A stretch of DNA of 64,000 nt from Mobula hypostoma (lineage: Eukaryota), in the NCBI RefSeq assembly GCF_963921235.1, contig NC_086097.1, positions 155,188,001 to 155,252,000 on the forward strand. The letters run 5' to 3'. The first letter of the stretch is position 1. Each line of letters opens with the position of its first letter. The translations under genes were made by a program, and so were the position numbers. The notes beneath the pieces are model-generated. The model was given only the letters and a program-made list of their open reading frames with translations, searched no databases and was not told where the DNA came from. This document shows positions 6,077-64,000 of the stretch, piece by piece.

Positions 6077-6159
6077 TCAGTCGATCCTGATGTTGACGAA
6101 GAGTGAGGCTGCGGGCAGGGGGTCGCCGTTTGCTGACAGAAGGTGGATGTGGCGGTACC
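6077..6159 (-). CDS. PLCD1-like: PLC-delta last coding exon (end of C2, stop)
   Basis: tctcag|GG TAC CGC CAC ATC...; [27 protein letters not shown] then TGA at 6077-6079. Confidence 0.94.
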
Positions 6160-12100: not shown

Positions 12101-12946
12101 GCGCTTCCTCAGGAACTTAGGCTTCAGGATATAACCAGAGAAACCGTTGTTTCGAAATTTACTCTGGTAGATGTCCATCTCCTGCCCAAAGGTCTGAAAA
12201 TTCAGGGCCACTGCAGGCATTGTGGTGGAAGTGCAGAAGGAAGAGGGTGGGGAGGAGAACCAGAGGGAGGGTGAGAGGGAGGATAGAGAGTTGTGTGGGA
12301 GAAGAGGAGGAAGGATGGGCAATGGAATGAAAGGAGAGGGTGTGTGCGTGTCAGAGAGAGAGAGGGAGAGAAAATGAGAACTTTTAAAACATTTCATTAT
12401 CATCTCTGCACTGAATATCAGCAAGTAATAAATGTGTTTGTATCTGCGGTGATTACAAGGAACTGAAACAGTTACTGGGTTACCATTCTGTGTGGTATCA
12501 GACACAGTTTGGTGCTGAACAATCTCCCAATTAAAAGCCAATTGAGTTGTACATGCAAACCGATCAGGAGCTGCATTGGTGTTCGGCAAGGGTGGTTGGG
12601 TGGGATGGGGAATGTACAGGCAAATTCTTGGAGAGTATCCAGGGAATCTGGGCTGACTAGGATCCCGTGCATAACCAGTGATCGGGGGTGTTAATACTTT
12701 ACTGAAGCCCGTCTTCCATGTGAGTTGGCTATAATGGGAGAGTGTGAGTCAGGGACTCCCATCCATGACGCGGTGTGTGTGAGAGTGTGTATCTCTATGG
12801 GTGTGTAGCATTTTGATCGTGTGTGTGTGAGATTCAAAAACAGTTACTGTCCCCAAGATGTCAGATAGCAGATATGAGGTTTGCATCTATGACGGGGTGT
12901 GCGTGTGATGTGCACGCATGTCCATCTCTCTGGGTGTGTATCCATT

Positions 12947-12984
<38 letters not shown>

Positions 12985-36900: not shown

Positions 36901-39900
36901 TCATGAAGATACAGTAGTGTACCTTGAACAGGTCCATTGCATGCATACTATCCACTTCTATATTCATCATATGCATAAACTGCTTCACTTCTTCCAGCGT
37001 CATTTTGGCGTTCTTATCAATATTGGCCTTCTGCAGGTAAAGTTGGAACAATCTGCGAAGTGATGCAAGGAAACAACTCAAGCAGTGGGGTACAGCCCCA
37101 TCCAAACCCAAGCAATGGGGTACAATCCCATCCAAACCCAAACAGTGGGGTACAGTCCCATCCAATCCCAAACAGTGGGGTACAGTCCCATCCAAACAGA
37201 GGGGTACAGTCCCATCCAAACTCAAACAGTGGGGTACAGTCCCATCCGAACCCAAACAGTGGGGTGCAGTCCCATGAGAGTCACACACAGCAATGCACAC
37301 AAACATAGATAACAGACACACTCATGCAAAGACATATATACACACACACACAGATACACAAACACAAGTCAGTGACAATAAACATGATTCTGATTATGTG
37401 CTCTCATACCTATAGGCTTATGTACTTCTAAGTCAGGTTACGTGACTTGGAGGCGAAGTAGTTCCCACGTGCCTGCTACCATTGACTTCTACACGGGGGT
37501 GGACTTAGGTGCCAATGTCGAAGAAGACAATGGATGAAATGGTACCCTCCTTTTCTCACATACTTAGCAAAGGATACTGGTCCAGCTGCTCTCTCCGTTT
37601 CATGCTGGAGTTTCTGATCTTCAGTTTTGTAAGGCCATTGACCCAGTGCTGGGCCTCCTCAGCGCTGCTGGCCACCAGGTCCAGTTTAGTGTTCCTCTCC
37701 TTAAAGAGGATGGAGAAGCTGCAATCTGTGCGCTTCTCCAATATCACCTCTGACCAGTGGCCTGCCCTCACCTCTTGGATGTCAGCGATGGAGACTGGAG
37801 GGGATTGGGGGGTGGGTGGGTTAGAACAGCAACAGAGATCAGAACAAAATACTCAGATTCAGATTAATAAACACAAGAGATTCTGCAGATGCTGGAAATC
37901 CATATTAGCACACAGAAAATGCTGGATGGACTGAGCAGGTCAGGCAGCATCGGTGCAGAAAAATAAACAGTCAATGTATCAGATTTTCCGAAATTGGCCT
38001 GAGTCCTGATGAAGTGTCTCAGCTCAGAACGTCAACTCTTTATCTTCTCCAGAGAGCAGCCTGACCTGTAGATTCAGATTTATTTATTATGTGTACATCA
38101 AAACACACAGAATCCTCAAAGATCACCCTCAATCCAGACATGCACGCTTCTCCTCTCTCCCATCAAAATAAAAAAGCTTGAAAACACATATCCCCAGGCT
38201 CAAGGACAGCTTCTATCCCATGGACTCAGTTCTCTTTGCCTTATTGCAGGAAGGATGTGGCAGTTTCAGGAAGAGTGCAGATGAGATTTACCCAGATGCT
38301 GACTGGACTGGTGGGCATGTCTATGAACACAGGTTGAGCACACTATGGCTGAAATGAGTGCAGTTGATATTATGAAAGAGAAGGTACATGGAAAACTGGA
38401 AGGCCTGAGGTACATAAGACAAATGCACCAGGATAGACAAAGGAGAATCAATGGATGTTTTTTTACTTGGATTTGCATTGACAACATGTCGCACACGAAG
38501 CTGCTTAAGAAGAGCCCATGGTATAAGTTGCATGGACAGAAGATTGCCTGCGTAATGTGAGACAAACAGTGGGAATAAAGGGGGCCTGTTCTGTTTGGCT
38601 GTTGATAACATGTTGTGTTCCGCACACATTGTATATCAATAATTTGGATGACGAACTTGATCACTTTGTGGCCGGGTTTTCAGATGATGATACAAAGATA
38701 GGTGGAGGGGCAGGTAATATTGAGGAAGCAGGGTCTACAGAGAGATTTAGACAGATGAGGAGAACGGGCAAAGAAGTGGCAGATGGAATATAATTTAGGG
38801 ACGTGTATGTCATGCAATTTGGTCAAAGGAATAAAGGCATAAGACTATTTTCCAAATGGGAAGAAAATTAAAGATTCAGAAGTGCAAAGGGATTGGATGT
38901 CCTTGTTGAGGATTCCCTGAAGGTTAACTTGCAGGTTAAGTTGGTGGCATGGAAGGCAAACGCAATATTAGCATTCATTTCGAGAGGACAAGAATATGAG
39001 CAGGATGTAATGCTGAGGCTTAAATAGACATTGGTCAAATTGCACCAGTATTGTGAACAGTTTTGGGCCCCTTCAAAAAGATGTGTGGTATTGGAGAGCA
39101 TCCGGAAGTTGTTCATGAGAATGAGTCCTGGAATGAAAGGATGAACAGATGAGGAGAGTTTGCTGTCTCTGGGCCTGTAACTGTTGGAGTTTCAAAGAAT
39201 AAGGGGAGCTCTCATTTAAACCTAATGAATATTGAAAGTCCTACAAAGAGTGCATGTGGAGTGGATGTTTCCTGTAGCGGAGGACACGAGTACCAGAGGG
39301 TACAGTCTCAGAATAGAGGGATAGCCATTTCAAACAGAGATGAGGAGTGATTTCTTTAGCCAGAGGGTGGTGAATCTGTGGAGTTCATTGTCATGGATGG
39401 CTGTGGAGGTCTTCCTTGTCTCCATGGAGATCAAGTGGATAGCCAGAGATTTTTCACCCCCTCCAGAGTGAAAATGGCTATTATAAGGAGGCATAATGTT
39501 AAAGTGATCGGAGCAAAGTACAGGGTGGATAGCAGACGATGGATTTTTTTTTTTTTTACACAGTGTGGTGAGTGCATGGAACACATTGCTAGGCATGGTG
39601 GTAGAGGTAGATACATAAGGGACATTTGAGAGATTTCTTCTACCTCTGACCTCCAAGCTTCTTAGTTCAAACACCTTCCCAAAACCACAACCTTTCCTCT
39701 CACCTGGTGCACTGATCAGGTTGTATTTTTCCCCTCACCGACCCTCTCGTGATGGCTTCTGCTGCCTTCCTTTCCAGTCCTGATGAAGGGTCTTGGCCCA
39801 AAACATTGACAGTTTATATATATCCTTTCATAGATGCTGCCTGAGTTCTTCTGGCATATTGTGTGTGGTACTCTCAACAGATTCACCTTAACTCCCCCAA

Positions 39901-42900
39901 GATTCTACTCCTTGCAGAAGACATGAAAACTCAAGAATATAAGGACAGGCTCAAGAAAAGCTTCTAACCTGCTATTACAAGACTCCCAAGCAGACCTCTC
40001 ATCAAATTGTCCTCCTTTCTCTCCCCCACTTTTTTATTTGGTTGTCTTCCTCTCTTTTCCTTTTGGTCCGAAACATTAACTACTTATTTTTCTGGATGCT
40101 GACATAACACCTGAAGCGTCCAGCAGGCAGCACCAACATCTCCAAGAGCAATGATGCCATCTGTCTGGATGGTGATGCTCACCCCAACTCACTGGGACTG
40201 ATTAAGTGGCGTTCAAGGCTGGTGGCTGCATGCATTAGTTCTTCAATCATGATACTTAATCTGCTTGTTAGAATCAACTGCTAAGGTTAGTCAATCTCTG
40301 TGGAATTGTTTCTGCGTGTCGGTACTGAAAAAAGACTTACCTGGGATCTAGCCTGTGGAAACACCCCTTTTGTTTTGTGGACTGACTGCATCATTTTCTC
40401 CTGAACCCTGAATCTTGTGAGACAGTCTATCTGAAGCCTTTATTGTGTATTCTTTGTGAACTCTTAAATTGCCTGTGTATTTTTGTTGGAATCTGAACAA
40501 GTGAATGTGGCAAGACAGTTGTACTGAGAACTTCTCACTGTTGAAGTAAAGTCTGAAGTCATTTGAGTCAGTGTCTGTGTACAATTGTACTTTGACCCAC
40601 CTATATCTTTTCTGCTGACTTATCCAGTGTTGTGTATGTGTTGCTCTGGATGTCCAGCATCTGCAGAGTTTCTTGTGTTCATGCAGGAAAATTATTCTTT
40701 TGATCTTTCAACCCATCTGACTTGATTTGATGCAAAATGACAGATTTCACTGTCTGTCTCGATGCACATGTCACAAATACACTCACTGGCCACTTTATTA
40801 GGTACCTCCTGTGCTGAGTACAGGTTTGTGGTCTTCTGCTGCCATTGTCTGCCCACTTCAAGGTTTGGCATGTTGTGCTTTCAGAGACATTCTTCTTCCA
40901 ACCACTTGTACCACATGGCTACTTAAGTTACGTCCAACTTCCAGGCAGCTTGATCCAGATTGGACTTCGTTCTCTGGCCTCTCTCATTAACAAAACATTC
41001 TGCCCACAGAAATGAGACTCACTAGATGTTCTTTAGTTTTGTGTTTTGTTTTGAACCATCTGTAAATACTAGATGATCAGCCATGATCACAGTGAATGGC
41101 GGTGCTGGCTCGAAGGGCCGAATGGCCTACTCCTGCACCTATTGTCTATTGTCTCGAGAGCATTGTGCATGAAAATACCAGCATGACTGGCTGATTAGAT
41201 ATTTGCCTTAATGAGCAGGTGTACCTAATGTGCCAGTGATTATATTCTACATTCTGTAGTGATTTTTGCTTTTACTACCTCAATGTATTTTTGCTTCAAA
41301 GTAATGTGTGTCTAGCTGTCAAAGTCAAAATTGAGTTTATTGTCTTGTGTGCAACTACATGTTTGCACAGGGCACTGAAAAACTGGCTTCCAGCAACATA
41401 TATGGCTCATAGCATCAGATAAGCACCATTCACAAGAAATTAAATTTATGTACAATATTTTCAAGAATGAACACCATTAGAAAATGAAGTGATCAAAGCA
41501 AAACCAAGTTTTACACTTCATCTCATTACATGTGACAATAACAAACCAATATTAAATAGAGGGAGGAAGTTAAAGCTCCCAGGGCAAACACGTGTGTTCA
41601 CATGGAGAACGTACAAGCTCCACACAGACAGCACAAAGGTCAAGGGGCATCACTCTTGCGTGGCAGTTACCAGGATGCTATGACAGCTCAGGTCGTCAGA
41701 GTTCACATTTCAATTTTGGCACCGTCTGCAAGGGGCTTATTCATACTCCCTGTGATCAAGTGGGTTTCCTCCACAGTCCAAAGTCGTACAATTTAGTAGG
41801 ATAATTAGTAATTGAGTATGGTCCTGCCATTGGGGTCATGTTAAGTCGGCGAGTTGTTGGACCAGAAAGGCCTGTTCTGCGTTCTATCTCAAAATAAAAT
41901 GAATTAAATTTTATTTCATTCTGCTGTTTCTGCCCAGATCAGAGCTGCCTTCAGGCAGCAAATCTACTGGCTCCAACATGGTGTCATACCATCAATCAAG
42001 GTCTCATCACTGGCATTGTTGGCCCCTTGGACAAATATTTTTGTAAACTTTCTACCAACACTCTCACTGTCCCGTCCCACCATCCCTCTAAGACTTGCAC
42101 AGCACTCACAAATTTGGTTCCTGGCTCTCTTGAAGATTTTCTGAGAGTCATACCACACCGTCTGACAGTCCTCCTGGAGCCTGTAATAACGGAACTTCAT
42201 CCAAAAATGAGACTTAATTTTCAGCAGACGGCTCCCTTTGAGCATGACTTCAAGATCTTCTTCGTTGAAGTCTTCTGAGGAAAACAGAGAGGACACATCA
42301 GTCAGAGAGACGCCAGAAAGGCAGAAAGGAAGTGAAGGCTAAGAAGGTAATGAAGGAAAAGAGGGAGCGAAGGAGGAATGGGATAGGTAACTGGAGAATG
42401 CCTAGAGCAGGGAAAAGGTGTTAATGTTCAGGAGAGAGCAAACAATAAGATATGATACTAATCCACAACACAGGCCCTTGTTATGTGACAGAACCCATGG
42501 AAATCATGCAGCCCAGACAGTGAACCTGGCTGAATTTCTAAAGATCTCTGCTCATCAACTGTATGGAGTATTTACTGTTATCTTTAACTTTTCGCTACAG
42601 CAGTCTGAGGTACCCACCTACCTCAAGCAGATATCGATCATACTGGTACCCAAGGAGATTCAGGTAACCTGCTTCAATGATGATCATTCAGTAGCATTTA
42701 TATCCAATCCAATCCACCTACCATCACAACAGGTTACAGCAGATGCTATTTCATTGACTCTCCCCTCAGCCCTAGAACATCTGCACAGGGAAGATGCACA
42801 CAGCAGGACACTCTTCATTGATTACAGATCAGTAGTCAATGCTATCATTGCATCAAAACTAATCAATAAACTACAAGACCCTGACTTCAATACCTCTTTG

Positions 42901-51900: not shown

Positions 51901-54900
51901 ATCAGGGGATTATCAGCATGAGCACAACCTTTGAACACACTTGCAAAGACAGTACAACTCAGCTTCTCAAAGTTATTTATTTACTTATTATTATTATATT
52001 GTATTAGCATAGTTTCTCATCTTTTACACGTTGGTTGTTTATCAGTCTTTGTGTGCAGTTTAGCTTTGATTCTATTGTATTGTGGCGAGCATTCGGTACA
52101 TGATGACAAACGAGGAAAGCTCACTCATCTCAACTGCTCTTTCTATTGCGACATGCACAATAACAGAGCGCAAAGCTTGGTGAGAAGTAACTCAATCACA
52201 TACAGATAGGGAGGTTATTAGTGCACATCCTGGTTACATTCAGGGTGGCACACAAACACACAAATGAACAACTGAATAACCCGAGCTGAAATGTAACAAA
52301 AACTGAACTCGAACATCTCACTATAATTGTACTGAATACACACATTATGAATGCAATTTTCAAACATAAATGCTGGGGGCGTGAATAACCCCCAGATCTT
52401 TGGAGCTGTCCCACACCAGATACTTTCTCTTCTCCCGTCTCCCATCAGTCGGAAGATGCAAAAGCCTTAAAGCACAAACCAGCACCAGACACAAGAACAG
52501 CTTCTATCTTCCTGTTATAAGACGATTGAACGGTCCCCTTGTACAATAAGATCTTTATTTTACAATCTATCTCAATATAATCTCGCATGTAATCAAAAGG
52601 ATCTGCAGTGTTATGGACATAGAGACCATGGAGTGGAGGCAGGTTTCTCTGATGGGGAAAGCTGTCTGTATTTCTCACTGCCTCAGTAAAGCAGCCAGCA
52701 TCATCAAAGACCTTCCCACCTCAGACATTCTTTCTTCTGGAGTTGCACAGTGGAGAGTATCCTGACTGGTTGCCTAATGGCCTGGTATGGAAAGACCAAT
52801 GTTCAAGAATGTAAAGGCCGACAAAAAGTGATGGATACGGCCCAGTCCAGAGGAAAAGCCCCAACATCCACCATTGAGCACATCTATCAGAAGCACTGCC
52901 AGAAGAAAGCAGCATCGATTTTCAAGGACGTCCGCCATCTAGGCCACGCTCCCTTCTCATTGTTGCCATCAGGACGGAGGCACAGGATCTATATTTCCCA
53001 CACCACCAAGTTCAGGAACAGTTATTACCCTTCAACCATGAGGCTCCTGAACCAGTGTGGATAATTTCCCTCACCTTAACACTGAACAGATCACTGAGCA
53101 CAACCTTTGAACACACTTTCAATGGCAATACAGCTCATGTTCTCAAAGTTACTTATTTACTTGTTATTATTATGTTGTATCAGCATAATTTGTCATCTTT
53201 TGCACATTGGTTATTTGTCAGACTTTGTGTGTAGTTTATCTTTGATTCTATCGTATTGTGGCGAGCATTTGGTACATAATGGCAGATGACAAAAGCTCAC
53301 TCATCTCAACTGCTCTTCCTATTGCGACATGCACAATAACAGAGCGCAAAGCTTGGTGAGAACTCAGTCACACACTGACGGAGGAGATGATTACTACACA
53401 CCACGGTTACATTCAGAATGGCACACAAACACACAAGTGAACAACTGTATTACCCGAGCTGAAATGTAACAAAAACTAAATTTGAACATCTCAACATAAT
53501 TGTACTAAACACACAGCGCTGGCTGCTAGGAATGCTGGGGGCGTGCTGACAACCACATCCCCGGTGTGCAACACTATTATTAATTGTATTGGGAAGGTCC
53601 AGAAGAAAATGAATTTCAGGATAGTATATGGTGACATATATGGAATTTGAAAATAAATTTACTGTGAACTTTAAACTTTGAGAAATAAATCTGAACTTAA
53701 CCATTAAATTTCTTCCCTCTCACCTTTAACATGTGCCCTCTAGTCCTCGATTCACCAGTCCAAGGAAAAAGACTTAGTACATTCACACTACCTATGCCAC
53801 TTATAGTTTTAGACACTGCTATAAGGTCACGCTTCAGCCTGCTACACTTCAATTAAAGTTCTCGACTATCCAAGTTGGGATAGATGCAGAGATACAGCTT
53901 GTTTTCACATCTCTCTTCATCCAGGGTTTAATTGTGACTTGGGATTGTTAATTCCACTCTGCTGGTTTGTGCTCATCATTGTATTTATTGTTGGAATCAT
54001 TGACATGGTCTCAGCATACAAGGACATGGGAACCAATTCCTTGAAGAGCACCCGTCAGTTCACTGGAAGAAACCAGTACGTCTGCAGAAGTGTAGTGGTC
54101 AGTGGTGATCACTTTCCAGTGCTAGCAATCACTGGTAAGGGTTCGATTCCCACTGCTGCCTGTAAGGAGCTTGCCTGTTCTCCCTGTGGGCACCTGGGAT
54201 TCCTTTGGGTCCTCTGGTATTCTGCCACATTCCAAGTAGGTACAGGTTCAGGTTAGTGAGTTGTGGCATGCAATGTTGGCGCTGGATGCGTGCCAACATT
54301 TACGGTGTGCCCAGAGCCCATCCTCAGACCGTGTAAGTCCTCAATACAAGACTGCACGTTTCACTGAATATTTCGACGTGTTATAAATAAAGCTAATCTT
54401 TAAAGGGCTGGCTGAGATTACTTCTTTAAGAGTTAAATAAGAGAAGAGGGCAAAGGAGTGGGAGCGAAAAAAAAGATTATGCGAAACAGAAATATACGTG
54501 GCAGGAACTCAATGCATAAAAGCATGTAGCCGTGTACAAGAGGATCAATTGCTGTTCAGACCAAATATCAGAATGGGGTAGAAACGTGATCTAAGTGACT
54601 TTGACCACAGAATGATAGTTGGTGCCAGACAGAGTGGTCTGTGTTTCCCAGAAACTGATGAGCTGGAATTTTAAAGCACAACAGTCTCTTGAGTTTTCAG
54701 AGAATGGTGCAAAAACCATCCAAACACCTTGTTAATTAAAAGGGACAGTGGAAAATGGCCAGCCAAGCTCAAGCTGACAGGAAGACTCTGGGAACACAAG
54801 TAACCATATATTACAACAGTGCTGTGTAGAACAGCATCTCTGAATGCACAATACATCAAACCTTGAAGTGAATGGGTTACAACAGCAGAAGACCAAGAAA

Positions 54901-56878
54901 ATACACCCAGTGGCCACGTTTTTTCAGATACAGGTGGCAACTGTATTTAATATAAAAACCTTGATACAGCGATCGTGCCTAAACATCTATTCTCTCACAC
55001 TCACTCGCTCACACATCTCACTCATGTTGGTATGAGACAATTTTTACCTTCAGCTTCTTTGTGAGAGTTTGCATTCAAATCTTCTGTATATTTTGTGATG
55101 TGAACTGAATCCTCTTTGCAGAATCTTGACTGCAGTGTCATATCAGCGGGCACCATTCCCTCACCTCGGCAGCCCTCTTGTTCACATCTTTGCCGATCTC
55201 TGTGGAGTTTTTGATTTGTTCTTGGCCATCTTCTCTTGTATTCTGTCTTCCCGTCCTCAGCCAATCTCACCTCTGCATACCTTCGTTTCTTAACGCCAAG
55301 AAACTTTCCTACTGATTGCAATCTTCCACTCAATGGAGCTCTTCTGTCACCCACCTTTGTGGTGTCATCTGATCCACACTCTGGACTCTGTTCATCGTTC
55401 TGCACTTGTTCTTCACTGCTCATTCCTCGATCCCCTCTTTTAAGTCCCACTTTCTCTTCTCCCACAATTACATTGTCTTTCCTTTCATTATTCACTTCCT
55501 CCTCAGCAATGATTCCTTCATCCTTAATTTCATTTATCATGTTCTCATCCCAGGTATCTCCGTTTTTGAACACTTGGTTCATTGTTGGGACAGCCACCTC
55601 TGACGGAAAATTCCCAACAGCTAGCTCGGGACCTGGCTGTTCCAGTAAACTAATTCCATGCTGCTTTCCTTCATCCCCTTCTTCCATATTATAACCCCCA
55701 ATATTCTGGCTCTCCGGTTTCCTATTCAGAGCTCCTTCCTCTGAATAACCTTCCTGGAAATCCAGGCTACCCTCACCTGGACACAAATTTTCAGTTTCAT
55801 GTTCTGACTCTCTAATCTCAGGAGCCAAGCTTTCAGCTTCCAGATTTTCCGTCTCGATGATTACTGGTAGACTCGAGCACCCCAAGTTTTCTGGCTCCAC
55901 TCGCTCAACTTCCTGCTGGGCGACGCCTGCTCCAAGCTCAGCTTCCCCAGCTTGGGGGCCCTTCCTGGCATTCTTCCTGCGGGCCCAGAGGCTGGCGGCA
56001 ACAGCGGCCCCAACAGCTAGCTCGGGACCTGGCTTTCCATCTGGCTGTTCTAGTAAACTAATTCCATGCTGCTTTCCTTCATCCCCTTCTTCCATATTAT
56101 CACCCCCAATATTCTGGCTCTCTGGTTTCCTATTCAGAGCTCCTTGCTCTGAATAACCTTCCTGCAAATCCAGGCTACCCTCACCTGGACACAAATTTTC
56201 AGTTTCATGTTCTGACTCTCTAACCTCAGGAGCCAAGCTTTCAGCTTCCAGATTTTCCATCTTGATGATTACTGGTAGACTCGAGCACCCCAAGTTTTCT
56301 GGCTCCACTCGCTCAACGTCCTGCTGGGCGACGCCTGCTCCGAGCTCAGCTTCCCCAGCTTGGGGGCCCTTCCTGGCATTCTTCCTGCGGGCCCAGAGGC
56401 TGGCGGCAACAGCGGCCCCAACAGCTAGCTCGGGACCTGGCTTTCCATCTGGCTGTTCTAGTAAACTAATTCCATGCTGCTTTCCTTCATCCCCTTCTTC
56501 CATATTATCACCCCCAATATTCTGGCTCTCTGGTTTCCTATTCAGAGCTCCTTCCTCTGAATAACCTTCCTGGAAATCCAGGCTACCCTCACCTGGACAC
56601 AAATTTTCCGTTTCATGTTCTGACTCTGTAACCTCGGGAGCCAAGCTTCCAGCTTCCAGATTTTCTGTCTCGATGATTACTGGTAGACTCGAGCACCCCA
56701 AGTTTTCTGGCTCCACTCGCTCAACGTCCTGCTGGGCGATGCCTGCTCTGAGCTCAGCTTCCCCAGCTAGGGGGCCCTACCTGGTATTCTTCCTGCGGGC
56801 CCAGAGGCTGGCGGCAACAGCGGCCCCAACAGCTGACAGGCTGAGGAGCAGCAGCGCAGATAGTTTGTGGCAGCACAT
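6077..56878 (-). CDS. PLCD1-like: Phosphoinositide phospholipase C delta-like gene (divergent PLCD1-like paralogue), 15 predicted exons; span of the gene model
   Basis: Hand-spliced exons give PH, EF-hands, X box (SSSHNT, GCRxxEL, IYHG), Y box (RVYP..RTDSSNY, VALNFQT) and C2 ([29 protein letters not shown]). Exons 2-15 total 2186 nt in one open frame. Family is secure; delta1 versus delta3/4 orthology is not proven; the exon 1 link is inferred from phase. Confidence 0.9.
8415..8564 (-). CDS. PLCD1-like: PLC-delta exon 14 (C2 domain)
   Basis: tttcag|GT TTC...CAA G|gtattg; 150 nt; [50 protein letters not shown]. Confidence 0.95.
8735..9215 (-). mobile_element. Degenerate 3' derivative of the Penelope-like element
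   Basis: Similar to 22860-23370 ([11 protein letters not shown]...[13 protein letters not shown] plus purine-rich tract); related pieces at about 28965-29620 and 35440-35880. Confidence 0.7.
9243..9552 (+). mobile_element. Possible LTR remnant
   Basis: TGTG...CACA termini, TATAAATA at about 9401, AGTAAA at about 9489, PBS-like GGTGTCGAACC just after; no TSD seen. Confidence 0.35.
10904..11039 (-). CDS. PLCD1-like: PLC-delta exon 13 (C2 domain)
   Basis: ccacag|GTC ATC...AAT G|gtaagt; 136 nt; [45 protein letters not shown]. Confidence 0.94.
12035..12210 (-). CDS. PLCD1-like: PLC-delta exon 12 (end of Y box, linker to C2)
   Basis: ctgcag|TG GCC...GTG CTG|gtaaga; 176 nt; [38 protein letters not shown]...NRKKLSVL. 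Confidence 0.94.
12953..12982. repeat. (TG)n microsatellite
   Basis: About 15 perfect TG units within a TG-rich tract. Confidence 0.9.
14354..14467 (-). CDS. PLCD1-like: PLC-delta exon 11 (Y box, Arg549/Tyr551 equivalents)
   Basis: ttgcag|GC TCC...ATA G|gtaaac; 114 nt; [37 protein letters not shown]. Confidence 0.93.
   Translation of the reverse strand, partial: APLSSAMPNSWTGYIQKTGGPTRLTTLPLTCGTPATR
15930..17182 (-). mobile_element. Penelope-like retroelement, 5'-truncated (GIY-YIG endonuclease)
   Basis: ORF 16326..16715 [28 protein letters not shown]; same family as 22840-25022. Confidence 0.88.
17244..17400 (-). CDS. PLCD1-like: PLC-delta exon 10 (start of Y box)
   Basis: ttccag|GAT GCA...TCG G|gtaaga; 157 nt; [52 protein letters not shown]. 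Confidence 0.92.
18190..19050 (-). mobile_element. Degenerate CR1-type LINE 3' fragment
   Basis: Tail CCATAAGAAATAGGAGCAG and ORF2 remnants ([15 protein letters not shown]) similar to 43076-43790. Confidence 0.75.
20413..20553 (-). CDS. PLCD1-like: PLC-delta exon 9 (end of X box and acidic X-Y linker)
   Basis: atgtag|GAA CTG...GAA AAG|gtgagt; 141 nt; [47 protein letters not shown]. Confidence 0.93.
21606..21746 (-). CDS. PLCD1-like: PLC-delta exon 8 (X box; canonical SLENHC reads FLRSHC)
   Basis: ttccag|GTC ACT...CCT GAG|gtaagg; 141 nt; [47 protein letters not shown]; this frame is absent from the ORF track. Confidence 0.93.
22840..25022 (-). mobile_element. Penelope-like retroelement (RT + GIY-YIG), 5'-truncated, one frameshift
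   Basis: RT motifs [26 protein letters not shown] (ORF 23593..24630); GIY-YIG in ORF 23270..24013; frameshift near 24030. Confidence 0.92.
27630..28290 (+). mobile_element. Degenerate CR1-type LINE 3' fragment
   Basis: [12 protein letters not shown] and following ORF2/3'UTR remnants. Confidence 0.7.
29660..29804 (-). CDS. PLCD1-like: PLC-delta exon 7 (X box, His356 equivalent)
   Basis: catcag|T GAA...TTT ACG|gtaagc; 145 nt; [48 protein letters not shown]. Confidence 0.95.
30330..30790 (-). mobile_element. CR1-type LINE 3' fragment
   Basis: ORF 30463..30792 [10 protein letters not shown]...LGLFSLE...TRGHSFKV. Confidence 0.8.
32233..32434 (-). CDS. PLCD1-like: PLC-delta exon 6 (start of X box, catalytic His311/Asn312 equivalents)
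   Basis: tgttag|CG AAG...ATT AG|gtactg; 202 nt; [10 protein letters not shown]...[31 protein letters not shown]. Confidence 0.95.
32815..33735 (+). mobile_element. Degenerate HERO-like (RLE-class) non-LTR retrotransposon fragment
   Basis: Across frameshifts: TGRK*KAKDAV...[11 protein letters not shown] and [39 protein letters not shown], a CCHC knuckle of the type preceding RLE domains; clade assigned from memory. Confidence 0.6.
33770..34420 (+). mobile_element. Non-autonomous Tc1-like relic (related copies at about 40782-41235 and 54540-54920)
   Basis: Shared TCAGAAACTGC.GATCTCCTG body and AATAAAGTGGCCACT terminus. Confidence 0.55.
34508..34736 (-). CDS. PLCD1-like: PLC-delta exon 5 (EF-hand region)
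   Basis: cctcag|AAA TGT...GAA G|gtaagc; 229 nt; [28 protein letters not shown]...[11 protein letters not shown]. Confidence 0.92.
36923..37052 (-). CDS. PLCD1-like: PLC-delta exon 4 (EF-hand region)
   Basis: tcgcag|A TTG...TTC AAG|gtacac; 130 nt; [43 protein letters not shown]. Confidence 0.9.
37053..37577 (-). other. U12-type (minor spliceosome) GT-AG intron 3
   Basis: Donor GTATCCTTTG matches the U12 consensus RTATCCTTT; TTCCTTGCA branch-like motif lies about 10-20 nt before the AG. Confidence 0.8.
37083..37275. repeat. 30-bp minisatellite, about 6.5 units (CAGTGGGGTACAGTCCCATCCAAACCCAAA)
   Basis: Directly visible tandem units; one is shortened by 6 bp. Confidence 0.92.
37578..37794 (-). 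CDS. PLCD1-like: PLC-delta exon 3 (PH domain, C-terminal half)
   Basis: ctccag|TC TCC...GAC CA|gtatcctttg; 217 nt; [12 protein letters not shown]...[29 protein letters not shown]. Confidence 0.93.
38470..39420 (+). mobile_element. Degenerate CR1-type LINE ORF2 fragment
   Basis: YINNLD...[12 protein letters not shown] remnant followed by C-terminal CR1 sequence. Confidence 0.75.
42110..42274 (-). CDS. PLCD1-like: PLC-delta exon 2 (PH domain, N-terminal half)
   Basis: cctcag|AA GAC...ATT T|gtgagt; 165 nt; [54 protein letters not shown]. Confidence 0.93.
42500..43068 (+). mobile_element. Old Rex1/L2-like LINE RT remnant, continuing at 43795-43907 and 51851-51920
   Basis: [13 protein letters not shown]...RTLFIDY; resumes as KFADNTT after one CR1 insertion and as NIS..K after the next. 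Confidence 0.7.
43070..43794 (-). mobile_element. Young 5'-truncated CR1 LINE
   Basis: Intact ORF 43160..43573 ([13 protein letters not shown]...RGDLIETFR...[11 protein letters not shown]) and (TCTTATGG)n tail. Confidence 0.9.
45533..45563 (+). promoter_or_regulatory. L1 internal-promoter-like motifs (ETS-like ACTTCCGG, YY1-like ATGGCGGC)
   Basis: Both motifs lie in the first 40 nt of the element. Confidence 0.45.
45665..46654 (+). CDS. L1 ORF1 protein (coiled-coil, RRM, CTD)
   Basis: [31 protein letters not shown] motifs; C-terminus may be frameshifted. Confidence 0.88.
   Translation: MMSKNKNKKSASKADKRKEIQQGEGPSSPTASQDGDNEGESVTLSLILGEIREFRQDNSKQLEDIKGEIVKTNSRIDEAEARIVGIEEKLQNAEEVIAEMLKLQDQLQWKLIDQGGRSRRENVRIYGVPEGTEGKPGLMIPFVEKLLRENLDMPAAKDLQIERAHRALAPQPPAGAQPRSILIRFLSYRMKEKVLKRAWQKKGFMWNNCKISLDHDYAPGILARRKEYTETRRVLKENNIRFQTLYPARLRVFYDEGTKTYATVEEATSDLADRGLPIKVITQPESLLERIRQKSWQLVGRDAPLEPECQTTRKSCKYSDANVQRIQIN
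47013..50807 (+). pseudogene. L1 ORF2 (APE endonuclease, RT, Cys-rich C-terminus), single frame with two stops
   Basis: ORFs at 47013, 48669 and 50550 share one frame; [27 protein letters not shown] motifs; TAA at 48645-48647 inside an apparent 9-nt insertion and TGA at 50451-50453 (HIFW->HIF*). Confidence 0.92.
51920..53520 (+). repeat. Direct duplication of about 450 bp (51920-52365 versus 53097-53515)
   Basis: Collinear similarity including shared junctions between unrelated pieces. Confidence 0.85.
55048..56878 (-). CDS. Candidate exon 1: signal-anchor-like start, 3 x 136-aa acidic repeat, unique charged region; in-frame TAG at 56777-56779
   Basis: ATG at 56878 is in frame with ORF 55022..56716. 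Donor GAAG|gtaaaa after 55048 is phase 1 and matches the exon 2 acceptor (G+AA=Glu). Next in-frame ATG at 56503 has strong context (AATATGG). Confidence 0.6.
55622..56833 (-). repeat. Tandem triplication of a 408-bp (136-codon) unit; third unit has a 12-nt deletion
   Basis: VEPENLG codons recur at 56716, 56308 and 55900 (period 408); units nearly identical. Confidence 0.96.
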
Positions 56879-57185
56879 CCCGCTGTTCCGGGGGATACAA
56901 GTAGAATTCTAACAATATTGCAGAAGCAAAGCAAGAAGGTACTCCCCTCTTCAGCAGGGAGAAGCACAAAACTTGGACTTTGCCAATAGACAACTTCTGT
57001 CCTACAGTTATTAAAATACTTAGCAGTCCCTTGAAAAATAACATGCACTGATGACCTCACAATCTAGCTCATTATGACCTTGCTCAAGAAAATGTACGAG
57101 TATTGTGGACACAGATCATCATGACATCATGAAAACCAGCCTCCCATTTTACATGAAGATGTATTCATGAACTCACAATCTATAT

Positions 57186-58418
57186 AGTCATAGTCATACT
57201 TCATTGATCCCGAGGGAAATTGGATTTCATTACAGTTGCCCATAAATAAATACTAATAAAACAATAAATAATTAAATAGTAATATGTAAATTATGCCAGG
57301 AAATAAGTCCAGGACCAGCCTATTGGCTCAGGGTGTCTGACCCTCCAAGGGAGGAGTTGTAAAGTTTGATGGCCACAGGCGGGAATGACTTCCTATGACG
57401 CTCAGTGTTGCATCTCGGTGGAATGAGTCTCTGGCTGAATGTACTCCAGTGCCCAACCAGTACATTATGTAGTGGGTGGGAGACATTGTCCAAGATGGCA
57501 TGCAACTTGGACAGCATCCTCTTTTCAGACACCACTGTCAGAGAGCCCAGTTCCATCCCCACAACATCACTGGCCTTAGGAATGAGTTTGTTGATTCTGT
57601 TGGTGTCTGCTACCCTCAGCCTGCTGCCCCAGCACACAACAGCAAACATGATAGCACTGGCCACCACAGACTCGTAGAACATCCTCAGCATCGTCCGGCA
57701 GATGTTAAAGGACCTCAGTCTCCTCAGGAAATAGAGACGGCTCTGACCCTTCTTGTAGACAGCCTCAGTGTTCTTTGACCAGTCGAGTTTATTGTCATTT
57801 CGTATCCCCAGGTATTTGTAATCCTCCACCATGTCCACACTGACCCCCTGGATGGAAACAGGGGTCACCGGTGCCTTAGCCCTCCTCAGGTCTACCACCA
57901 GGCTTTAGTCTTTTTCATATTAAGCTGCAGATAATTCCGCTCACACCATGTGACAAAGTTTCCTACCGTAGCCCTGTACTCAGCCTCATCTCCTTTGCTG
58001 ATGCATCCAACTACGGCCGAGTCATCAGAAAACTTCTGAAGATGACAAGACTGTGCAGTAGTTGAAGTCCGAGGTGTAAATGGTGAAGAGAAAGGGAGAC
58101 AAGATAGTCCCCTGTGGAGCCCCAGTGCTGCTGATCACTCTGTCGGACACACAGTGTTGCAAGTACATGTAGTGTGGTCTGCCAGTCAGGTAATCAAGTA
58201 TCCATGACACCAGGAAAGCATCCATCTGCATTGCTGTCAGCTTCTCCCCCAGCAGAGCAGGGAGGATGGTGTTGAATGCACTGGAAAAAAACATGACCCT
58301 CACAGTGCTCGCTGGCTTGTCCAGGTGGGCGTAGACACGGTTCAGCAGGTAGACGATGGCATCCTCAACTCCTAGTCGGGGCTGGCAGGCGAACTGGAGG
58401 GGATCTAAGTGTGGCCTA
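57186..58418 (-). mobile_element. Rex1/Babar-type LINE, 5'-truncated
   Basis: GVEDAIVYLL, GAPQGTILSPFLFTIYTSD, LYFLRRLRSF; (GACTAT)n tail; possible TSD CTATAT. Confidence 0.88.
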
Positions 58419-59284
58419 ACTATATCATCAAGATCTTGCTCGTAACTACAAAATAATGAAAAATGTTTGTGGATACAGTTCAGCACATCATGGAAACCAT
58501 CCTCCCCACCATGAACTGTGTCGGCCCGTCCCACTATCTCAGCAAAAACACCGGCTTATTCAAAGACCTCTCCCATACCAGATATTTTCCCCTCTCCCGT
58601 CTCCCATCAGACGGCAGATACAAAAGCCTTAAAGCACAAACTAGCACCCGACACAAGAACAGCTTCTATCTTTCTGTTATAAGACGATTGAACTGTCCCC
58701 TTATACAATAAGATGGACTCTTTATTTCACAATCTATCTCAATATGATCTTGAAAGTGATCAAAAGAATCTGCAGTGGGATGGACGTAGCTTTGCGCATC
58801 ACCGAAACCAGCCTCCCCTCCACTGACTCTGTCTGCACTTCTCACTGCCTCAGTAAAGCAGCCAGAATAATCAAAGACCCCTCCCACCTCAGACAATATT
58901 TCTTACTACCTCCGGCAAAAGACTCAAAAACCCGAAAGCATGCACCACTCAGCACAAGGACAGCTTCTACCCCGTTTTAAAAAACTATTGGCAGATACAG
59001 TAGGGACAATTAGAAACTTAGATAGGCACATGGATGATAGAAAAAATGTGGGCTCTAATGGGAGGGATTAGATGGATCTCAGAATACTTTGAAAGGTCCG
59101 ATCAACGTCATGAGCTGAATAGCCTGTACTTGGATAGACTCTTGAACTCATTTTGATCTTGCACTTGATTGCTTACTTGTACTGCACTTTCTTTGTGACT
59201 GCTGAACTTTATTCTGCCTTCTGTTAGATTTTTTTTACATTGTACCCATTGCACTAAGTAATCTGTATGAACACTTTGCAAGAT

Positions 59285-59688
59285 AAGTGGCCAAATCAGA
59301 GTCCAGACCTCAATACAATTGAGAAGCTGGCTGGATTTTAAAAGGGCTGTTCACCCATGATCCCCATGCAATCTGACTGAGGTTGAGCAGTGCTGTAAAG
59401 AAGAATGGGGAAAAACTGCAGTGCCCAGATGCGTAAAGCTGATAAATACCTATCTACACAGACTCAAGACTATAATTGCTGCCAAAAGTGCATCTCCTCA
59501 ATACTGACTTGAAGGAGGAGAATACTTATGCAATCAGTTATTTTGTGTTTTATATTTGTAATTAATTTATTTCACTTTGTTTTGACGAGTTTTTTTCTGT
59601 TGATCAGATTTTTTAAAAAGTGAAATTAAATCCACTGAGATCCAATGTTGTAAAATAATAAAATGTGAAAACTTTATATAGGCACTAT
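59285..59688 (+). mobile_element. Degenerate Tc1 3' fragment
   Basis: WPNQSPDLNTIE remnant followed by an AT-rich terminal region. Confidence 0.7.
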
Positions 59689-59999
59689 CGTTGAGGGACC
59701 GAGTGGAATGCCTTCCCCGCACCCCCGGTCTGGGGTCCTGAAGATGGGATGCCAACCCGGAGGGAGAACCTGTGAACTGAGCATTATGTCATCCAAGTAA
59801 AGCCGATGGGGTGAGCGGAGCCAGGCTCCCAAACCCGGGTTACGTGGTGGAGTGGATCCCCTGCCATCTTTGCAGCCTGCACCAGGGATCCCAAGACACC
59901 ACAGCCACGGGAGGATGAGCAACAAGGTAGGTACCACTAATACCATCAGGGAAAGAGGAAGACCAACGGGCCCCAGCATTTAATGCCACAATGTCCACC

Positions 60000-61480
60000 C
60001 TCCAATCTCCTAGTGCACACTGCCATTTTTGATGACGCTTTGCGAACGTGGAAGAGATCTTTGCCGCCATCTGCCAGGTGAATCAGCCTCTCTGCCGTGC
60101 AAAATGCAGTTTGCTGCGCCACCAGACGAAGTTACTGGGGCACATGTTGAATGTGGAAATAAGTGGCAACTGACCCTGAGAACGTGGTGGCGGACAGGGA
60201 ATGACAGATCCCTTGCATTGTCTCCGAGCTTCTTGGCATCGCAGGGCTGGTATCATACTACTGTCCATTTATTACAGACTTCACCACCATCGGCAGTTCC
60301 CTGCAGCAGCTCACATACAAGGGAAAACCCTTCGCCTGGACTGACACCTGCGCTGCCACCTTAAACCAGTTCCGAGCTGCGCTCACCAAGCCTTGGTGCT
60401 GGCAGGCATACCCCAATCCAGCACGCCCTTTCATTGATGACACAGACACCAGCAACAGTGGGCTCAGCGCAGTGCTGTCACAGGAGGGATACCAAGGAAA
60501 ATGCAGTTTGGCATACTTCAGCTGCACCCGGTGCTGCCCAGAAATGAACTATTTTGTCACCCATCAGGAGCTCTTGGCCACTTTCACCCCTACCTCTTCA
60601 GCCGACTGATCCTGCTTCACATGGAGTATGCGCCGTTGACCTGGCTATTGAGCTTCCATGGTCCCAAGAGGCAGCTGGTGCGGTAGCTGGAAGCTCTCCA
60701 TGACTACGATTTTGAGGAGCGGCACCGTGCCGGAAGGCACCACAGCAATGCTGACGTCCATTCTCCTCGTCCCTGTGAGGCCACTGAGTGTCACTACAGT
60801 TGCCACCTCGAAAATGGAGCCAGCAGCAAGCATGGTGGCGACAGTTCAGGCGGCGGCCCGTGGTGAGATAGACCTCCCCATCATTGAGCACAAGCAGCTG
60901 CACTGCGAACACGAAAGTGATGTCACGCTGGCCCGGTTGAAGGGGTAGCTGCATATTGGACGGTGGCTGGAGTGGGCAGAGGTCTCCACCCTGGATCTGG
61001 AGACGAAAGCCCTGCACTCTCAGTGGGGCATACTGGAGGTGCACGATGGGTGGTTGTTACAGCAGTGGCGGTTTTCAGATGGCAACAGACATCTTCTGCA
61101 ACTGTTGGTGCCCCAGGGCTTCTGTGCCGTCGTGCAGCAGTGGGTGCAGAGGCTGGTCAGGGCCTTCCACTTCGGTGTTGCAAAGACATTGGGCAAGCTG
61201 CATGAATGCTTCTACCGGCCTGAGTGCAGTCAGGACGTGGAGCTGTTTGTACACTTGCACATCTCAGAAGGGGCTATACCACCAATGCAGCAGTACCTGG
61301 TGGGGGTCCCAATGGAGTGCGTAGGGTGGCCATCTTGGACCCCAAACCCTCACCGACAGCAGGAAGCACTACGTTCTTGTGGCCATGGATTACTTCATGA
61401 AGTGGCCAGAGGCATACATGGACCCGGACCAGAGCCGCCACCACCACGCTGCTGTTGGAGGCTTCCAGTGAGATTTTGTC
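60000..61480 (+). mobile_element. Degenerate Ty3/Gypsy pol (RT connection, RNase H, integrase)
   Basis: SFLG, FAWTDTC, RPFIDDTDTSNSGLSAVLSQ, HFGVAKTLGKL..FY, YVLVAMDYF.KWPEA across frameshifts. Confidence 0.85.
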
Positions 61481-64000
61481 ACTCTGTGCCTCCTCATCAA
61501 TAGGCAAAGCCGGCAGCACACTCTCATGACCACCCTCATCACAAAGGAAATGTTGCTCTGAGGGGTGTCCATAATGAACAATCGACCACCGTGGAATTAC
61601 TGAGCGACCTACTCCACAGTAACATCTGGTATTGTCCGCGGATATTTCTCACAGTGCAAATAGGGCCTTGGCTTGTACAAATTAAGCAAAAACACTTTTC
61701 TCCCAAAACTTCAGCAGTTTCAAAGCGACTGCATTGGCCAACATGTTCAATAACTCTGGAATCGTCCCAGAGCATCCGGGTCTCCAGTGTAGGCTTTCAC
61801 AGATAAAATGGGTGAGGTGTTTTAAGTTCAAGGGAACCCTTAATAAACTCCCTTTTTCCCCTCCAAATGTTCAGCGTAAAGCATGGTTAAAAAAATTAAT
61901 CAAGTCAGACCAGCTTCTTAAAATGAACCCCAACTCAATGCTGGTGCTTGTGAATTACTGTATGTACATTTCCTACAATTGCATATATCGATGAAACAAT
62001 TAGGCCTACACAGCAATGTTCCATTAAATCTCCAAAAAAAAAACACAATTCGACGAGAACAGTCCCAGCTTTTGAGACCGTTCCTTCTCTCCCCCACTCC
62101 ATCTGCTATCACACAACACCCCGCCATACAACCTGGATCCACACATCAGGTACCTGATCTTGCCCCACCACTTTATAATTGTTATCTCACCTCTATCCCT
62201 CATTCCAGCGACACCAATTGTGCATTCCCCTCCACAAATGTTGCCTGATCTGCTGAGTTTTTCCAGCGGTTTGTGTGTTGCTTCAGATTCCAGCATTCAG
62301 TCTCGTTGAAGTGGCAGGTACAGTGAAGGGAAGGATAACGTCATGCAGTTTGGTAGAAGGAATAAAGGCAGAGATTTTCAAAAGGGGAGCAAATTCAGAA
62401 ATTTGAGGTGCAAAGGGACGGAACAGTCCTCATGCAGGATTCCCAATGGAGCAACTTGCAGGTTAAGCCAGTGATATGGACGGGAAATGCAATGTTAACA
62501 TTACTTCGAGAGGTCTCGACTGTAAAATAAAGTGTGTAATGGAAGATTTTATAAAGCATTGGTCAGAACATACTTGCAGTATTGTGAACAGTTTTGGAGC
62601 ACTATCCAAGATAGAATATGATATTGGCACTCGAAAAACTGAGTCACAGGGGAAGGTTGGACAGGCTGATCTTTATTCTTTCCGGTGTCGGAGACTGAGG
62701 GGTGACCTTATGGATGTGTCTAAAATTGTGAGCGGGATAGAGAGTGTATACATCAACAAAGACTATCACAAATTTCTATAGATGTACCGTGCAGAGCATT
62801 CTGATGGATTGCATCACTTTCTAGTATGGAGGGGTCACTGCACAGGATCGGGAAAGTTGCAAACAGTTGTAAACTCAGCTGGCTCCATTCTGGGTATCGA
62901 TCGCCCCAGCATCGAAAACATCTTCAGAATGTGATGCCTCAAAAAGACAGCGTTCATCAAAAAGGACCCCCATCACCCAGGACATACTCTCTTCTGATTG
63001 CTACCATCAAGAGGGGGATACCGGAGCCTGAAGACACATACTCAATACTTCAAGAACAATTTCTCCCGCTCCCCCCACCCCCCACCATTATCAGTTTTCT
63101 GAATGGACAATAAACCGATGAACACTTCTCCAACATTTTCCCTCTCTTTTTGCACTACTTACTTACTTTGATTTTTATTTATTATTGTAATTTATTGTTT
63201 TTTTACAATTATGTATTGCTGCTGCAAAACAACAAATTTCACACAACATATGCCAGTGATATTAAACCTGATTCTGATTTGCACAGACTTTTTCCAGAGC
63301 TGTGGATTCAACAACTAGAGGATGAAAGAAATACAGAAGCTGGAAACCTGAGATTAAAACAGAAAATGCCAGAAACACTCAGTGGGCCAGGCAGCATCTT
63401 TAGGGAAAGAAACAGAGTGACCGTTTCATCCCCGAGGTCGAAGCCCTTCATAAATAGCACCCGTGTTCAGGATTGAACCAGGTTCTCTGACACTCGGCTT
63501 TCTGCCTCAACCAACGTTGGTCACCTGGGGGGTCCATGCTCTACAAGTAACACATAAAATAGCTGAAGATGCGCAGAGAAGCTGCAAGAGTTTTTGTTCT
63601 CCTTTACATTTGTGTACTGGAAATGAAATTTAACAATTTTGAAACTTTAGTCAGAATAGCAAACATTAGGACAGAACACGAAGCACTCAAACAATTACCT
63701 AGGAGTGTATGGGCCCCTTCTACTGCAGAACACATCCCACACTGTCCAATCAGCAGTGCTGTTCACAACCAGTCCGAGAATTACTCTCAAGCCCCCAACT
63801 GCTCTACTTCGAGACCCATCCACTGATATGAAGTGCTGCAGTAAGTAAACCAATACCTTAACACTAGCTGTAAACACCAAAGCAGAACCAATCATCCCTC
63901 TTCATCATTTTTCACGAGTCCCAATCCTGTATTCATCGAACTTTCATGTTCCCACGATTGTATTTCCATACTATAATCAAAGCACCTGCAGAAAGTTCTA

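Follow-up and report, generated by a model that had tools for sequence, protein, structure and literature searches.

What kind of protein a phospholipase C-delta (PLC-delta) gene makes when its first coding exon is 1,831 nt long, and where such an exon comes from, are the questions raised by a 64,000-nt stretch of the Mobula hypostoma genome (contig NC_086097.1, positions 155,188,001 to 155,252,000), referred to here as the window. An initial annotation of this DNA proposed a PLC-delta tethered to an organelle on a long acidic spacer, and treated the exon as an architecture it did not recognize. Our analyses revealed a family of about 60 loci whose origin can be traced to an exon hidden within the first intron of ray PLCD1a; the parental exon is the new element here, and the window exon is thus not an orphan. 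On balance, we lean toward the reading that the window exon is the first coding exon of a ray PLC-delta-1 duplicate derived from that intron-1 exon, that its N-terminal helix would lie in an organelle membrane and carry the PH domain on a disordered spacer, and that this particular copy is null.

The exon occupies window positions 55048..56878 (minus strand, as are all positions given below for the gene). Its frame starts with an ATG at 56878 and runs through 610 codons plus one base to a phase-1 donor, G|GTAAAA, at 55048; the open frame extends a few codons beyond the donor to a stop. Residues 6 to 26 form a hydrophobic segment (56801..56863) that is predicted from hydropathy to be a signal-anchor. 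Specifically, residues 6 to 24, with a mean Kyte-Doolittle value of 2.02, are the only 19-residue stretch above 1.0, and the next 15 residues carry a net charge of +4, which bears out the hydrophobic start and basic cluster noticed at the outset. Past this basic flank the exon contains an in-frame TAG at codon 34 (56777..56779), three acidic repeats and a unique charged region (55048..55622), which is first acidic and then contains Lys/Arg clusters up to the conserved phase-1 donor.

Exon 2 (42110..42274) begins at 42274, directly after an AG. [quoted passage not shown] The in-frame join reads EAE-E-DFNEED, and the 610 codons and phase-1 donor of the initial annotation stand. Exons 3 to 15 (6077..37794) are open and encode the rest of the PH domain, the EF hands, X, Y and C2; the catalytic histidines are present, and the substitutions D343->E and E390->R are found. 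When the 15 exons were joined, all introns were AG/GT and the resulting 4,017 nt, or 1,338 codons, contained stops only at codon 34 and at the end. Thus, the 1,338 residues proposed by ignoring the TAG do assemble, but in the window copy the TAG removes everything past the anchor. Pfam placed PH, EF-hand, X, Y and C2 in PLC-delta order on models P0122 and P0001. Identity to ray PLCD1a is 66%, and the best named matches are PLCD1a. The RefSeq model of the window gene, P0122, starts from another first exon and takes up the frame beyond the TAG; because it bypasses the exon 1 start, RefSeq models are not proof of splicing. This model also inserts 30 residues ahead of the C2 exon (window 11129-11040) despite a canonical AG acceptor at 11040, and these extra residues are probably an annotation error.

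The stop at codon 34 had been passed over, and it cuts off all but the anchor in this copy. An AAG, encoding Lys, stands there in a second copy of the exon lying 38.6 kb upstream, in a full-length relative 194 kb upstream (gene B) and in both Mobula birostris models. The upstream exon copy has three repeats and is stop-free; 30 of its 1831 bases and 21 of its codons are not those of the window exon, and no exon 2 of its own was found. It is carried by the second of two 38.6-kb units that are directly repeated at 98-99% on the two sides of a 200-N gap, the first of which starts within the window (54336..64000). The gap (G000:C1:155280720-155280919) is the only one in the 262 kb read and sits exactly at the unit junction. 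Because of this position and the 98-99% overlap of the contig ends, the double unit has the pattern of overlapping contigs of different haplotypes left unpurged, or of a collapsed paralogue. The upstream copy is probably the other allele across an assembly gap, with about one chance in three that it is a true extra first exon.

Gene B has an intact exon 1 with one repeat and a full PLC body, and the two M. birostris models, each of 1206 aa, carry two repeats and an intact start. The RefSeq models of the sister gene and the two M. birostris genes join exon 1 to exon 2 likewise. With the intact upstream copy, gene B and the M. birostris models, the anchored form appears as the norm and the window copy as the exception. 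We are fairly sure that the window copy yields no anchored protein. The predicted product of its allele is a 33-residue peptide, perhaps accompanied by a protein without the anchor that starts at Met126 (56501..56503); this first AUG past the TAG has an A at -3 and a G at +4 and may serve as a re-initiation site. Stop-codon read-through was considered and rejected, as every other copy read has Lys at this codon. The sequencing runs compared with these loci have the character of DNA, with LINE and SINE depth in the thousands and no exon joins among the joints listed; they leave the TAG uncovered and, except for one 40-base piece, the parental exon as well, and so bear neither on expression nor on the allele.

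An unannotated exon of the same kind is present in intron 1 of PLCD1a (G000:C5:222128663-222129440, plus strand). This parental exon has 259 open codons and a G|GTAAAA donor, and starts with a hydrophobic segment, Trp-Trp-Ala-Cys and then basic residues. It lies downstream of both annotated PLCD1a first exons (222039013 and 222089632) and 11 kb ahead of the only exon 2 in the 260 kb examined; this position and the donor place it in frame with the intact enzyme. The parental exon matched the gene B exon with an E value of 3e-16 and a profile of the copies on contigs C1 and C76 with 92.8 bits, and it aligned to all subfamilies at 35-38%. The same phase-1 G|GTAAAA donor is found in the parent and in the C1 and C76 copies. 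Seven non-coding segments, located ahead of the exon, in the interval up to exon 2 and beyond exon 2, are collinear between parent and copies at 74-78%, values biased toward conserved sequence since the segments were chosen by BLAST and some are repeats. A copy re-inserted into the parent would carry a second exon 2, and only one is there. The simplest reading of these alignments is that PLCD1a used the anchor exon in its intron 1 as an alternative first exon, and that the copies derive from this internal unit by duplication of genomic DNA. Translated from this exon, the parental isoform would have ~1000 aa and combine the anchor with intact catalysis. The parental exon belonged to no Pfam family, and its Atlas search gave one match of 0.75, which we treated as noise. 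A motif shared 130-190 nt upstream of the ATG was dropped as a conserved promoter, because many repeat contigs cover a comparable stretch of the parental flank; the motif is probably what remains of a repeat. At the same locus there is a second, near-identical match to PLCD1a exon 3 (G000:C5:222250317-222250547), ~19 kb past the last exon of the gene.

In a tree of 22 proteins (all PLCD1, with no other PLC classes and no PLCL), the four full-length duplicates were sister to Mobula+Hemitrygon+Hypanus PLCD1a (90/88) and nested in batoid PLCD1a (98/97). The approximately unbiased (AU) test against a Mobula-only clade gave p=0.012. The duplication probably predates the split of devil rays and whiptail stingrays, a dating that we regard as tentative.

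The exon is widespread in the genome. Its unique part was matched at all nine candidate places, exon 2 gave 75 matches from 83 candidates (some being other PLC genes), and two other anchor exons used as queries gave 62 and 49 matches. The merged set, which also takes in three local matches, comprises at least 61 exon-1 loci on 14 contigs, and 50 of the 61 have a PH exon 2 within 16 kb downstream. Among these 50, only the window gene, gene B and the parent have an X-domain match within 80 kb; in this count each of 20 X-domain loci was represented by a single position, and decayed remnants, for instance on C76, escape it. In the PH-only copies that were read, exon 3 runs into a short tail and the donor is often GC. 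Four C76 copies (G000:C76:4.52-5.06 Mb) have open first exons of 358 codons. The anchor exons thus form a birth-and-death family. A protein search found no short anchor-PH protein among 24 candidates; in metagenome scans, the exon-1 alignment gave no confirmed stretch among 139 candidates and the exon-2 alignment one among 55, a 14-residue match. Penelope-like frames occur next to PH-only copies in three regions and in the introns of the window gene, and were not found in 5 of the 16 regions read.

Individual loci vary considerably. In five PH-only copies at G000:C1:93.97-98.11 Mb, the spacers contain differing numbers of an 11-residue Pro/Glu repeat and end in strongly basic sequence; the frames are 442 or 508 codons long. 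Eight tandem PH-only copies with ~8-12 kb spacing lie at G000:C45:49.53-49.60 Mb, with a Penelope-like frame on the same strand after each in the 30 kb read; the first exons translated there are truncated, and the PH Trp36 is Arg in two aligned copies. At G000:C21:96.96 Mb, a C76-type exon is without its start codon and half of the anchor, and no exon 2 was found in the 37 kb read downstream.

The acidic repeats of the window exon were described by Tandem Repeats Finder as 2.9 copies of a 408-nt period with 96% matches. The initial annotation's three repeats of 136 aa apply to units 1 (56427..56834) and 2 (56019..56426), each of 408 nt; unit 3 (55623..56018) carries a 12-nt deletion and is 396 nt, or 132 aa. 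The 10-base AGCTGTTGGG starts each unit and also opens the unique part. This direct repeat occurs once in the anchor codons, where unit 1 begins at the 10-nt microhomology, and again 408 nt downstream, and the pair would explain expansion by unequal crossing-over or slippage. Each added unit holds only the second half of the anchor and gives no membrane-segment score; unit 2, for example, opens with a partial anchor copy that is too short to score. Gene B, C76 and the parent have a single unit, M. birostris has two and the window exon three. The repeats are thus a recent expansion of the exon's own 5' part, and the presence of 1, 2 or 3 units among close relatives ruled out a conserved domain. 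A WH_PARP12 Pfam match in the repeats was also discarded, its score being under the cut-off. The second subfamily has a separate expansion, of an 11-residue Pro/Glu repeat, at a nearby position.

In all seven family members examined, a single hydrophobic segment lies within the first 28 residues, and its C-flank carries a net charge of +3 to +6. An uncleaved anchor with a cytosolic PH domain is the likely topology suggested by these sequences. A net positive C-flank is the rule for signal-anchored proteins of the outer mitochondrial membrane (PMC2426950). The spacer that follows is 21% Asp/Glu, and FoldIndex scored 85% of its windows as unfolded, in agreement with the disorder that had been proposed for it. 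A search of the Atlas with P0001 residues 1-478 gave no usable match. By polymer scaling, 260-610 disordered residues span roughly 15-25 nm, which is the width of a contact site.

Equivalents of K30, K32 and R40 are retained in all nine aligned PH copies when compared with the parent and 1MAI, with K32 replaced by Arg in two. These residues are needed for PI(4,5)P2 binding, and the isolated PH domain inhibits agonist-evoked inositol phosphate formation (PMC2132833). A preprint reports that the PLC-delta PH domain also binds acidic peptides (10.64898/2026.09.21.753330); an acidic spacer on the same chain might thus cover the PH domain in cis. In the lipase, the duplicates retain the SSHN and YHG motifs of the catalytic histidines, which we take to be His311 and His356. 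The Ca2+ ligands of the enzyme are Asn312, Glu341, Asp343 and Glu390 (PMC12195575), of which Asp343 and Glu390 are also described as active-site residues (PMC12195575, PMC3195387). E390->R and D343->E are found in all four full-length duplicates and in none of four parental orthologues (ELD->ELE/EME; SLENH->xLRS). A literature search found no paper on E390 mutants, and we infer the effect of E390R on lipase activity from the sequence. Hence, of the organelle-tethered PLC-delta first proposed, the coding first exon joined to exon 2, the anchor-like start and the spacer are upheld, but the lipase has lost Ca2+ ligands; given E390R and D343E in the duplicate, a tethered enzyme suits the parental isoform better. 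The retained PH residues together with the changed Ca2+ ligands favor an anchored PIP2 binder, and we see an even chance that the duplicates act as a tether or buffer and not as a lipase.

Several lines of evidence bear on selection. Homologous exon-1 frames remain open in five diverged subfamilies. In a neutral simulation (2000 runs, 0.15-0.3 substitutions/site), the exon stayed stop-free in 2.9% down to 0.1% of runs for the parent and 0.55% down to 0% for gene B, percentages that do not count frameshifts. Of 81 indels in six exon pairs, 42 had lengths divisible by three, versus 10 of 75 in seven flank pairs. For the PH exon, the ratio of nonsynonymous to synonymous substitution rates (dN/dS) between subfamilies was 0.19-0.54 versus a neutral value of ~0.6 (lower bound ~0.35). 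The dN/dS of the PLC core between parent and window was 0.25 (725 codons), with 0.44 for the X domain and 0.15 for C2. We consider it very probable that the exon is, or recently was, coding.

These observations can be combined as follows. A promoter within PLCD1a intron 1 would produce an anchored isoform in some tissue. Duplication of this internal transcription unit would then have followed at the level of genomic DNA, probably earlier than the divergence of devil rays from whiptail stingrays. Most copies would have dropped the lipase and the full-length C1 copies would have lost Ca2+ ligands, with anchor, spacer and PH domain retained. Such duplicates may hold an organelle, by its outer mitochondrial membrane or the endoplasmic reticulum (ER), near a PI(4,5)P2 membrane, and buffer PIP2 and inositol trisphosphate (IP3) without lipid cutting. 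The spacer would work by its length and charge and not its sequence, growing from one to two to three units via recombination between the two 10-nt direct repeats. The window allele would be a null, or would re-initiate at Met126 without the anchor. In its widest form, this proposal holds that a hidden exon anchors ray PLC-delta-1 and that dozens of anchor-spacer-PH tether genes, with adjustable spacers, tie mitochondria or the ER to PI(4,5)P2 membranes at contacts to which the parental isoform brings its lipase; as a whole we find this rather doubtful.

A number of findings weigh against the proposal. The joins between exons 1 and 2 are known from genomic sequence and gene models alone, and the models are possibly ab initio. 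Among 62 listed members of ten shark and ray PLCD1a clusters, none exceeds 812 aa and none is annotated as an anchored isoform, and no anchored parental isoform appeared among the best 120 of 2004 protein matches. The C1/C76 exon profile found one protein (P0002) among 1.84 billion representatives, where 50% clustering could hide an isoform. In the tree, the duplicates are on a long branch (0.44), which may bias the dating. The anchor itself is ambiguous: the hydropathy of residues 5-27 is 1.70 versus 1.49 for plectin 1b, and the best 19-mers of the family are at 1.63-2.27, which does not separate mitochondria from the ER. Since the value is somewhat above that of plectin 1b, ER insertion is about as likely as insertion into the outer mitochondrial membrane. 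The window segment also resembles a cleavable signal peptide. When 29 loci of the second subfamily were translated, 18 proved truncated and one had an altered donor; in the other 10 the frame reached an intact donor. In the two C76 regions read, the PH exons are open but the lipase exons have decayed: the motif of the first catalytic histidine is gone, and exons toward the 3' end are broken or missing. Finally, exon-1 dN/dS between subfamilies is ~0.5-0.8, not below the neutral expectation of 0.62-0.70 from the same method; a value under 1 was thus rejected as proof of selection by the neutral simulation. With dN/dS near neutral, only the frame and composition look selected, and by these comparisons the exon's frame is under selection and the spacer sequence hardly.

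This last point is shared by an alternative in which the family is now for the most part selfish or neutral cargo: segmental duplication and retroelements would have spread an old cassette from which little or no protein is made today, and its open frames would stem from former function or from recent copying. The TAG, the 18 truncated loci, the near-neutral exon, the 30 nt and 21 codons separating window and upstream exons, and the lack of a short anchor-PH protein among the 24 candidates all fit it, as do Penelope-like frames on the gene strand just downstream of PH exons at C1:93.97, C45:49.5 and C45:70.4. However, the regions read at C50, C70, C167, C2:252 and gene B yielded no Penelope frame, and the two M. 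birostris genes are intact. The parental exon, which did not arise by recent copying, still has its 259 open codons and its donor, and PH dN/dS lies mostly below the neutral mean. We therefore judge cargo to be improbable, and slightly more so than a further alternative that is itself unlikely: that the full-length duplicates are working membrane-tethered lipases, with Arg390 replacing Ca2+, and that splicing from the upstream exon rescues the window gene. Equivalents of H311, N312, E341, H356, K438/K440, S522, R549 and Y551 are retained, all 14 downstream exons are open, dN/dS against the parent is 0.44 in X and 0.15 in C2, and the stop-free upstream exon has no exon 2 of its own. Nevertheless, two of the four Ca2+ ligands are altered, most family members are without any lipase, and the upstream copy starts right at the 200-N gap, at contig ends that overlap by ~38 kb at 98-99%.

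Two further alternatives concern the exon's product. A Leu-rich core followed by small residues is the pattern of a signal peptide, and in the window and C76 copies the core is indeed followed by Ala, Gly and Ser, as would be expected if the segment were cleaved and the products secretory. Here, invariant columns directly after the hydrophobic segment (parent Trp26, Ala27, Lys30, Lys34, Pro36) fit a membrane boundary, and PH, EF-hand and C2 domains act in the cytosol, so we hold secretion to be quite improbable. Least probable, in our view, is that the frame belongs to an independent gene of one exon, situated upstream of a PLC-delta gene that starts with another first exon. The frame does pass the donor by a few codons to a stop, and 11 of the 61 exon loci have no exon 2 match within 16 kb; yet exon 2 follows at 50 of the 61, the phase-1 G|GTAAAA donor is common to the parent and the C1 and C76 copies, and no match to a short first exon was found in 262 kb around the window, in a search that used P0002 as query and did not seek the parental first exons directly.

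The surroundings of the gene contain additional elements. In intron 1, antisense to the gene, lies a nearly full-length long interspersed nuclear element (LINE; window 45632-50807, plus strand), presumably of the L1/Tx1-like family, with an ORF1 of 340 aa and an ORF2 interrupted by stops; it was not found in the intron of gene B. Frames at 23270-25134 and 16326-17077 (both minus strand) lie in other introns, and from their motifs we take them to be a Penelope-like reverse transcriptase and GIY-YIG. A 30-nt minisatellite (window 37075-37275) lies in the intron that separates exons 3 and 4, and C76 copies read a similar repeat as their tail after exon 3. Decayed PLC-delta fragments on both strands surround the two full-length genes, at window 2698-4131 (plus strand) and at G000:C1 ~155.254-155.268, 155.293-155.307 and 155.348-155.354 Mb, and there is an additional X-domain match at G000:C1:155.51 Mb.

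We return to the proposed anchored PLC-delta-1 duplicates and compare them with known proteins. They share with PLC-delta-1 itself (elasmobranch PLCD1a P0123/P0003; rat, PDB 1DJG, PH 1MAI) the PH-EF-X-Y-C2 order, the catalytic histidines and the basic residues of the PH domain. In contrast to its leader of ~20-35 aa, window-type genes have an anchor-like first exon of 342-610 aa; the duplicates have D343E and E390R, and most relatives stop after the PH domain. To our knowledge, no PI-PLC has a membrane-spanning anchor of its own, and a literature search, which left most subscription papers outside, found no paper on a membrane-anchored PI-PLC or on a batoid PLC-delta expansion. The parental isoform, if made, would be a natural, catalytically intact, anchored PLC-delta-1, and its copies would show stepwise how an alternative first exon can seed a family that loses the enzyme and keeps the anchor and lipid sensor. 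The window copy itself matters less, as it is probably a dead allele, and the neighboring "duplicate" may be an assembly artefact.

In their proposed action, the duplicates resemble PRIP (PLCL1, PLCL2), which has a PLC-delta-like fold, damaged catalysis and a PH domain that buffers IP3 and PIP2. PRIP proteins are encoded by ancient separate genes without a membrane anchor, whereas the window gene is an intron-containing PLCD1a duplicate with collinear introns; descent from PLCL1 or PLCL2 was rejected on this collinearity and on the PLCD1a grouping, the latter in a tree that comprised PLCD1 proteins only. Tom20, Tom70 and AKAP1 have a short N-terminus with one hydrophobic segment, followed by aromatic and then basic residues. 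The likeness of the anchor layout to theirs is analogy only, as the parental exon has no Pfam family.

A closer architectural parallel is plectin 1b, in which an alternative first exon also gives an N-terminal signal-anchor with one hydrophobic segment and a positive C-flank, shown by experiment to fix an otherwise soluble protein in the outer mitochondrial membrane (PMC2426950). Exon 1b encodes 38 aa, is less hydrophobic (1.49 versus 1.70) and has no long acidic spacer, and homology is not expected. For the layout as a whole, the parallel is yeast Num1/MECA, which combines an organelle-binding N-terminus with a PI(4,5)P2-binding PH domain across a long region with dispensable repeats; Num1 differs in binding mitochondria by a coiled coil and not a membrane helix, and its sequence is unrelated (PMC12033498). 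According to that review, Num1 has no mammalian homologue, and the molecules tethering mitochondria to the plasma membrane in higher eukaryotes are an open question (PMC12033498). The anchor-spacer-PH proteins predicted here have the layout of such a tether.

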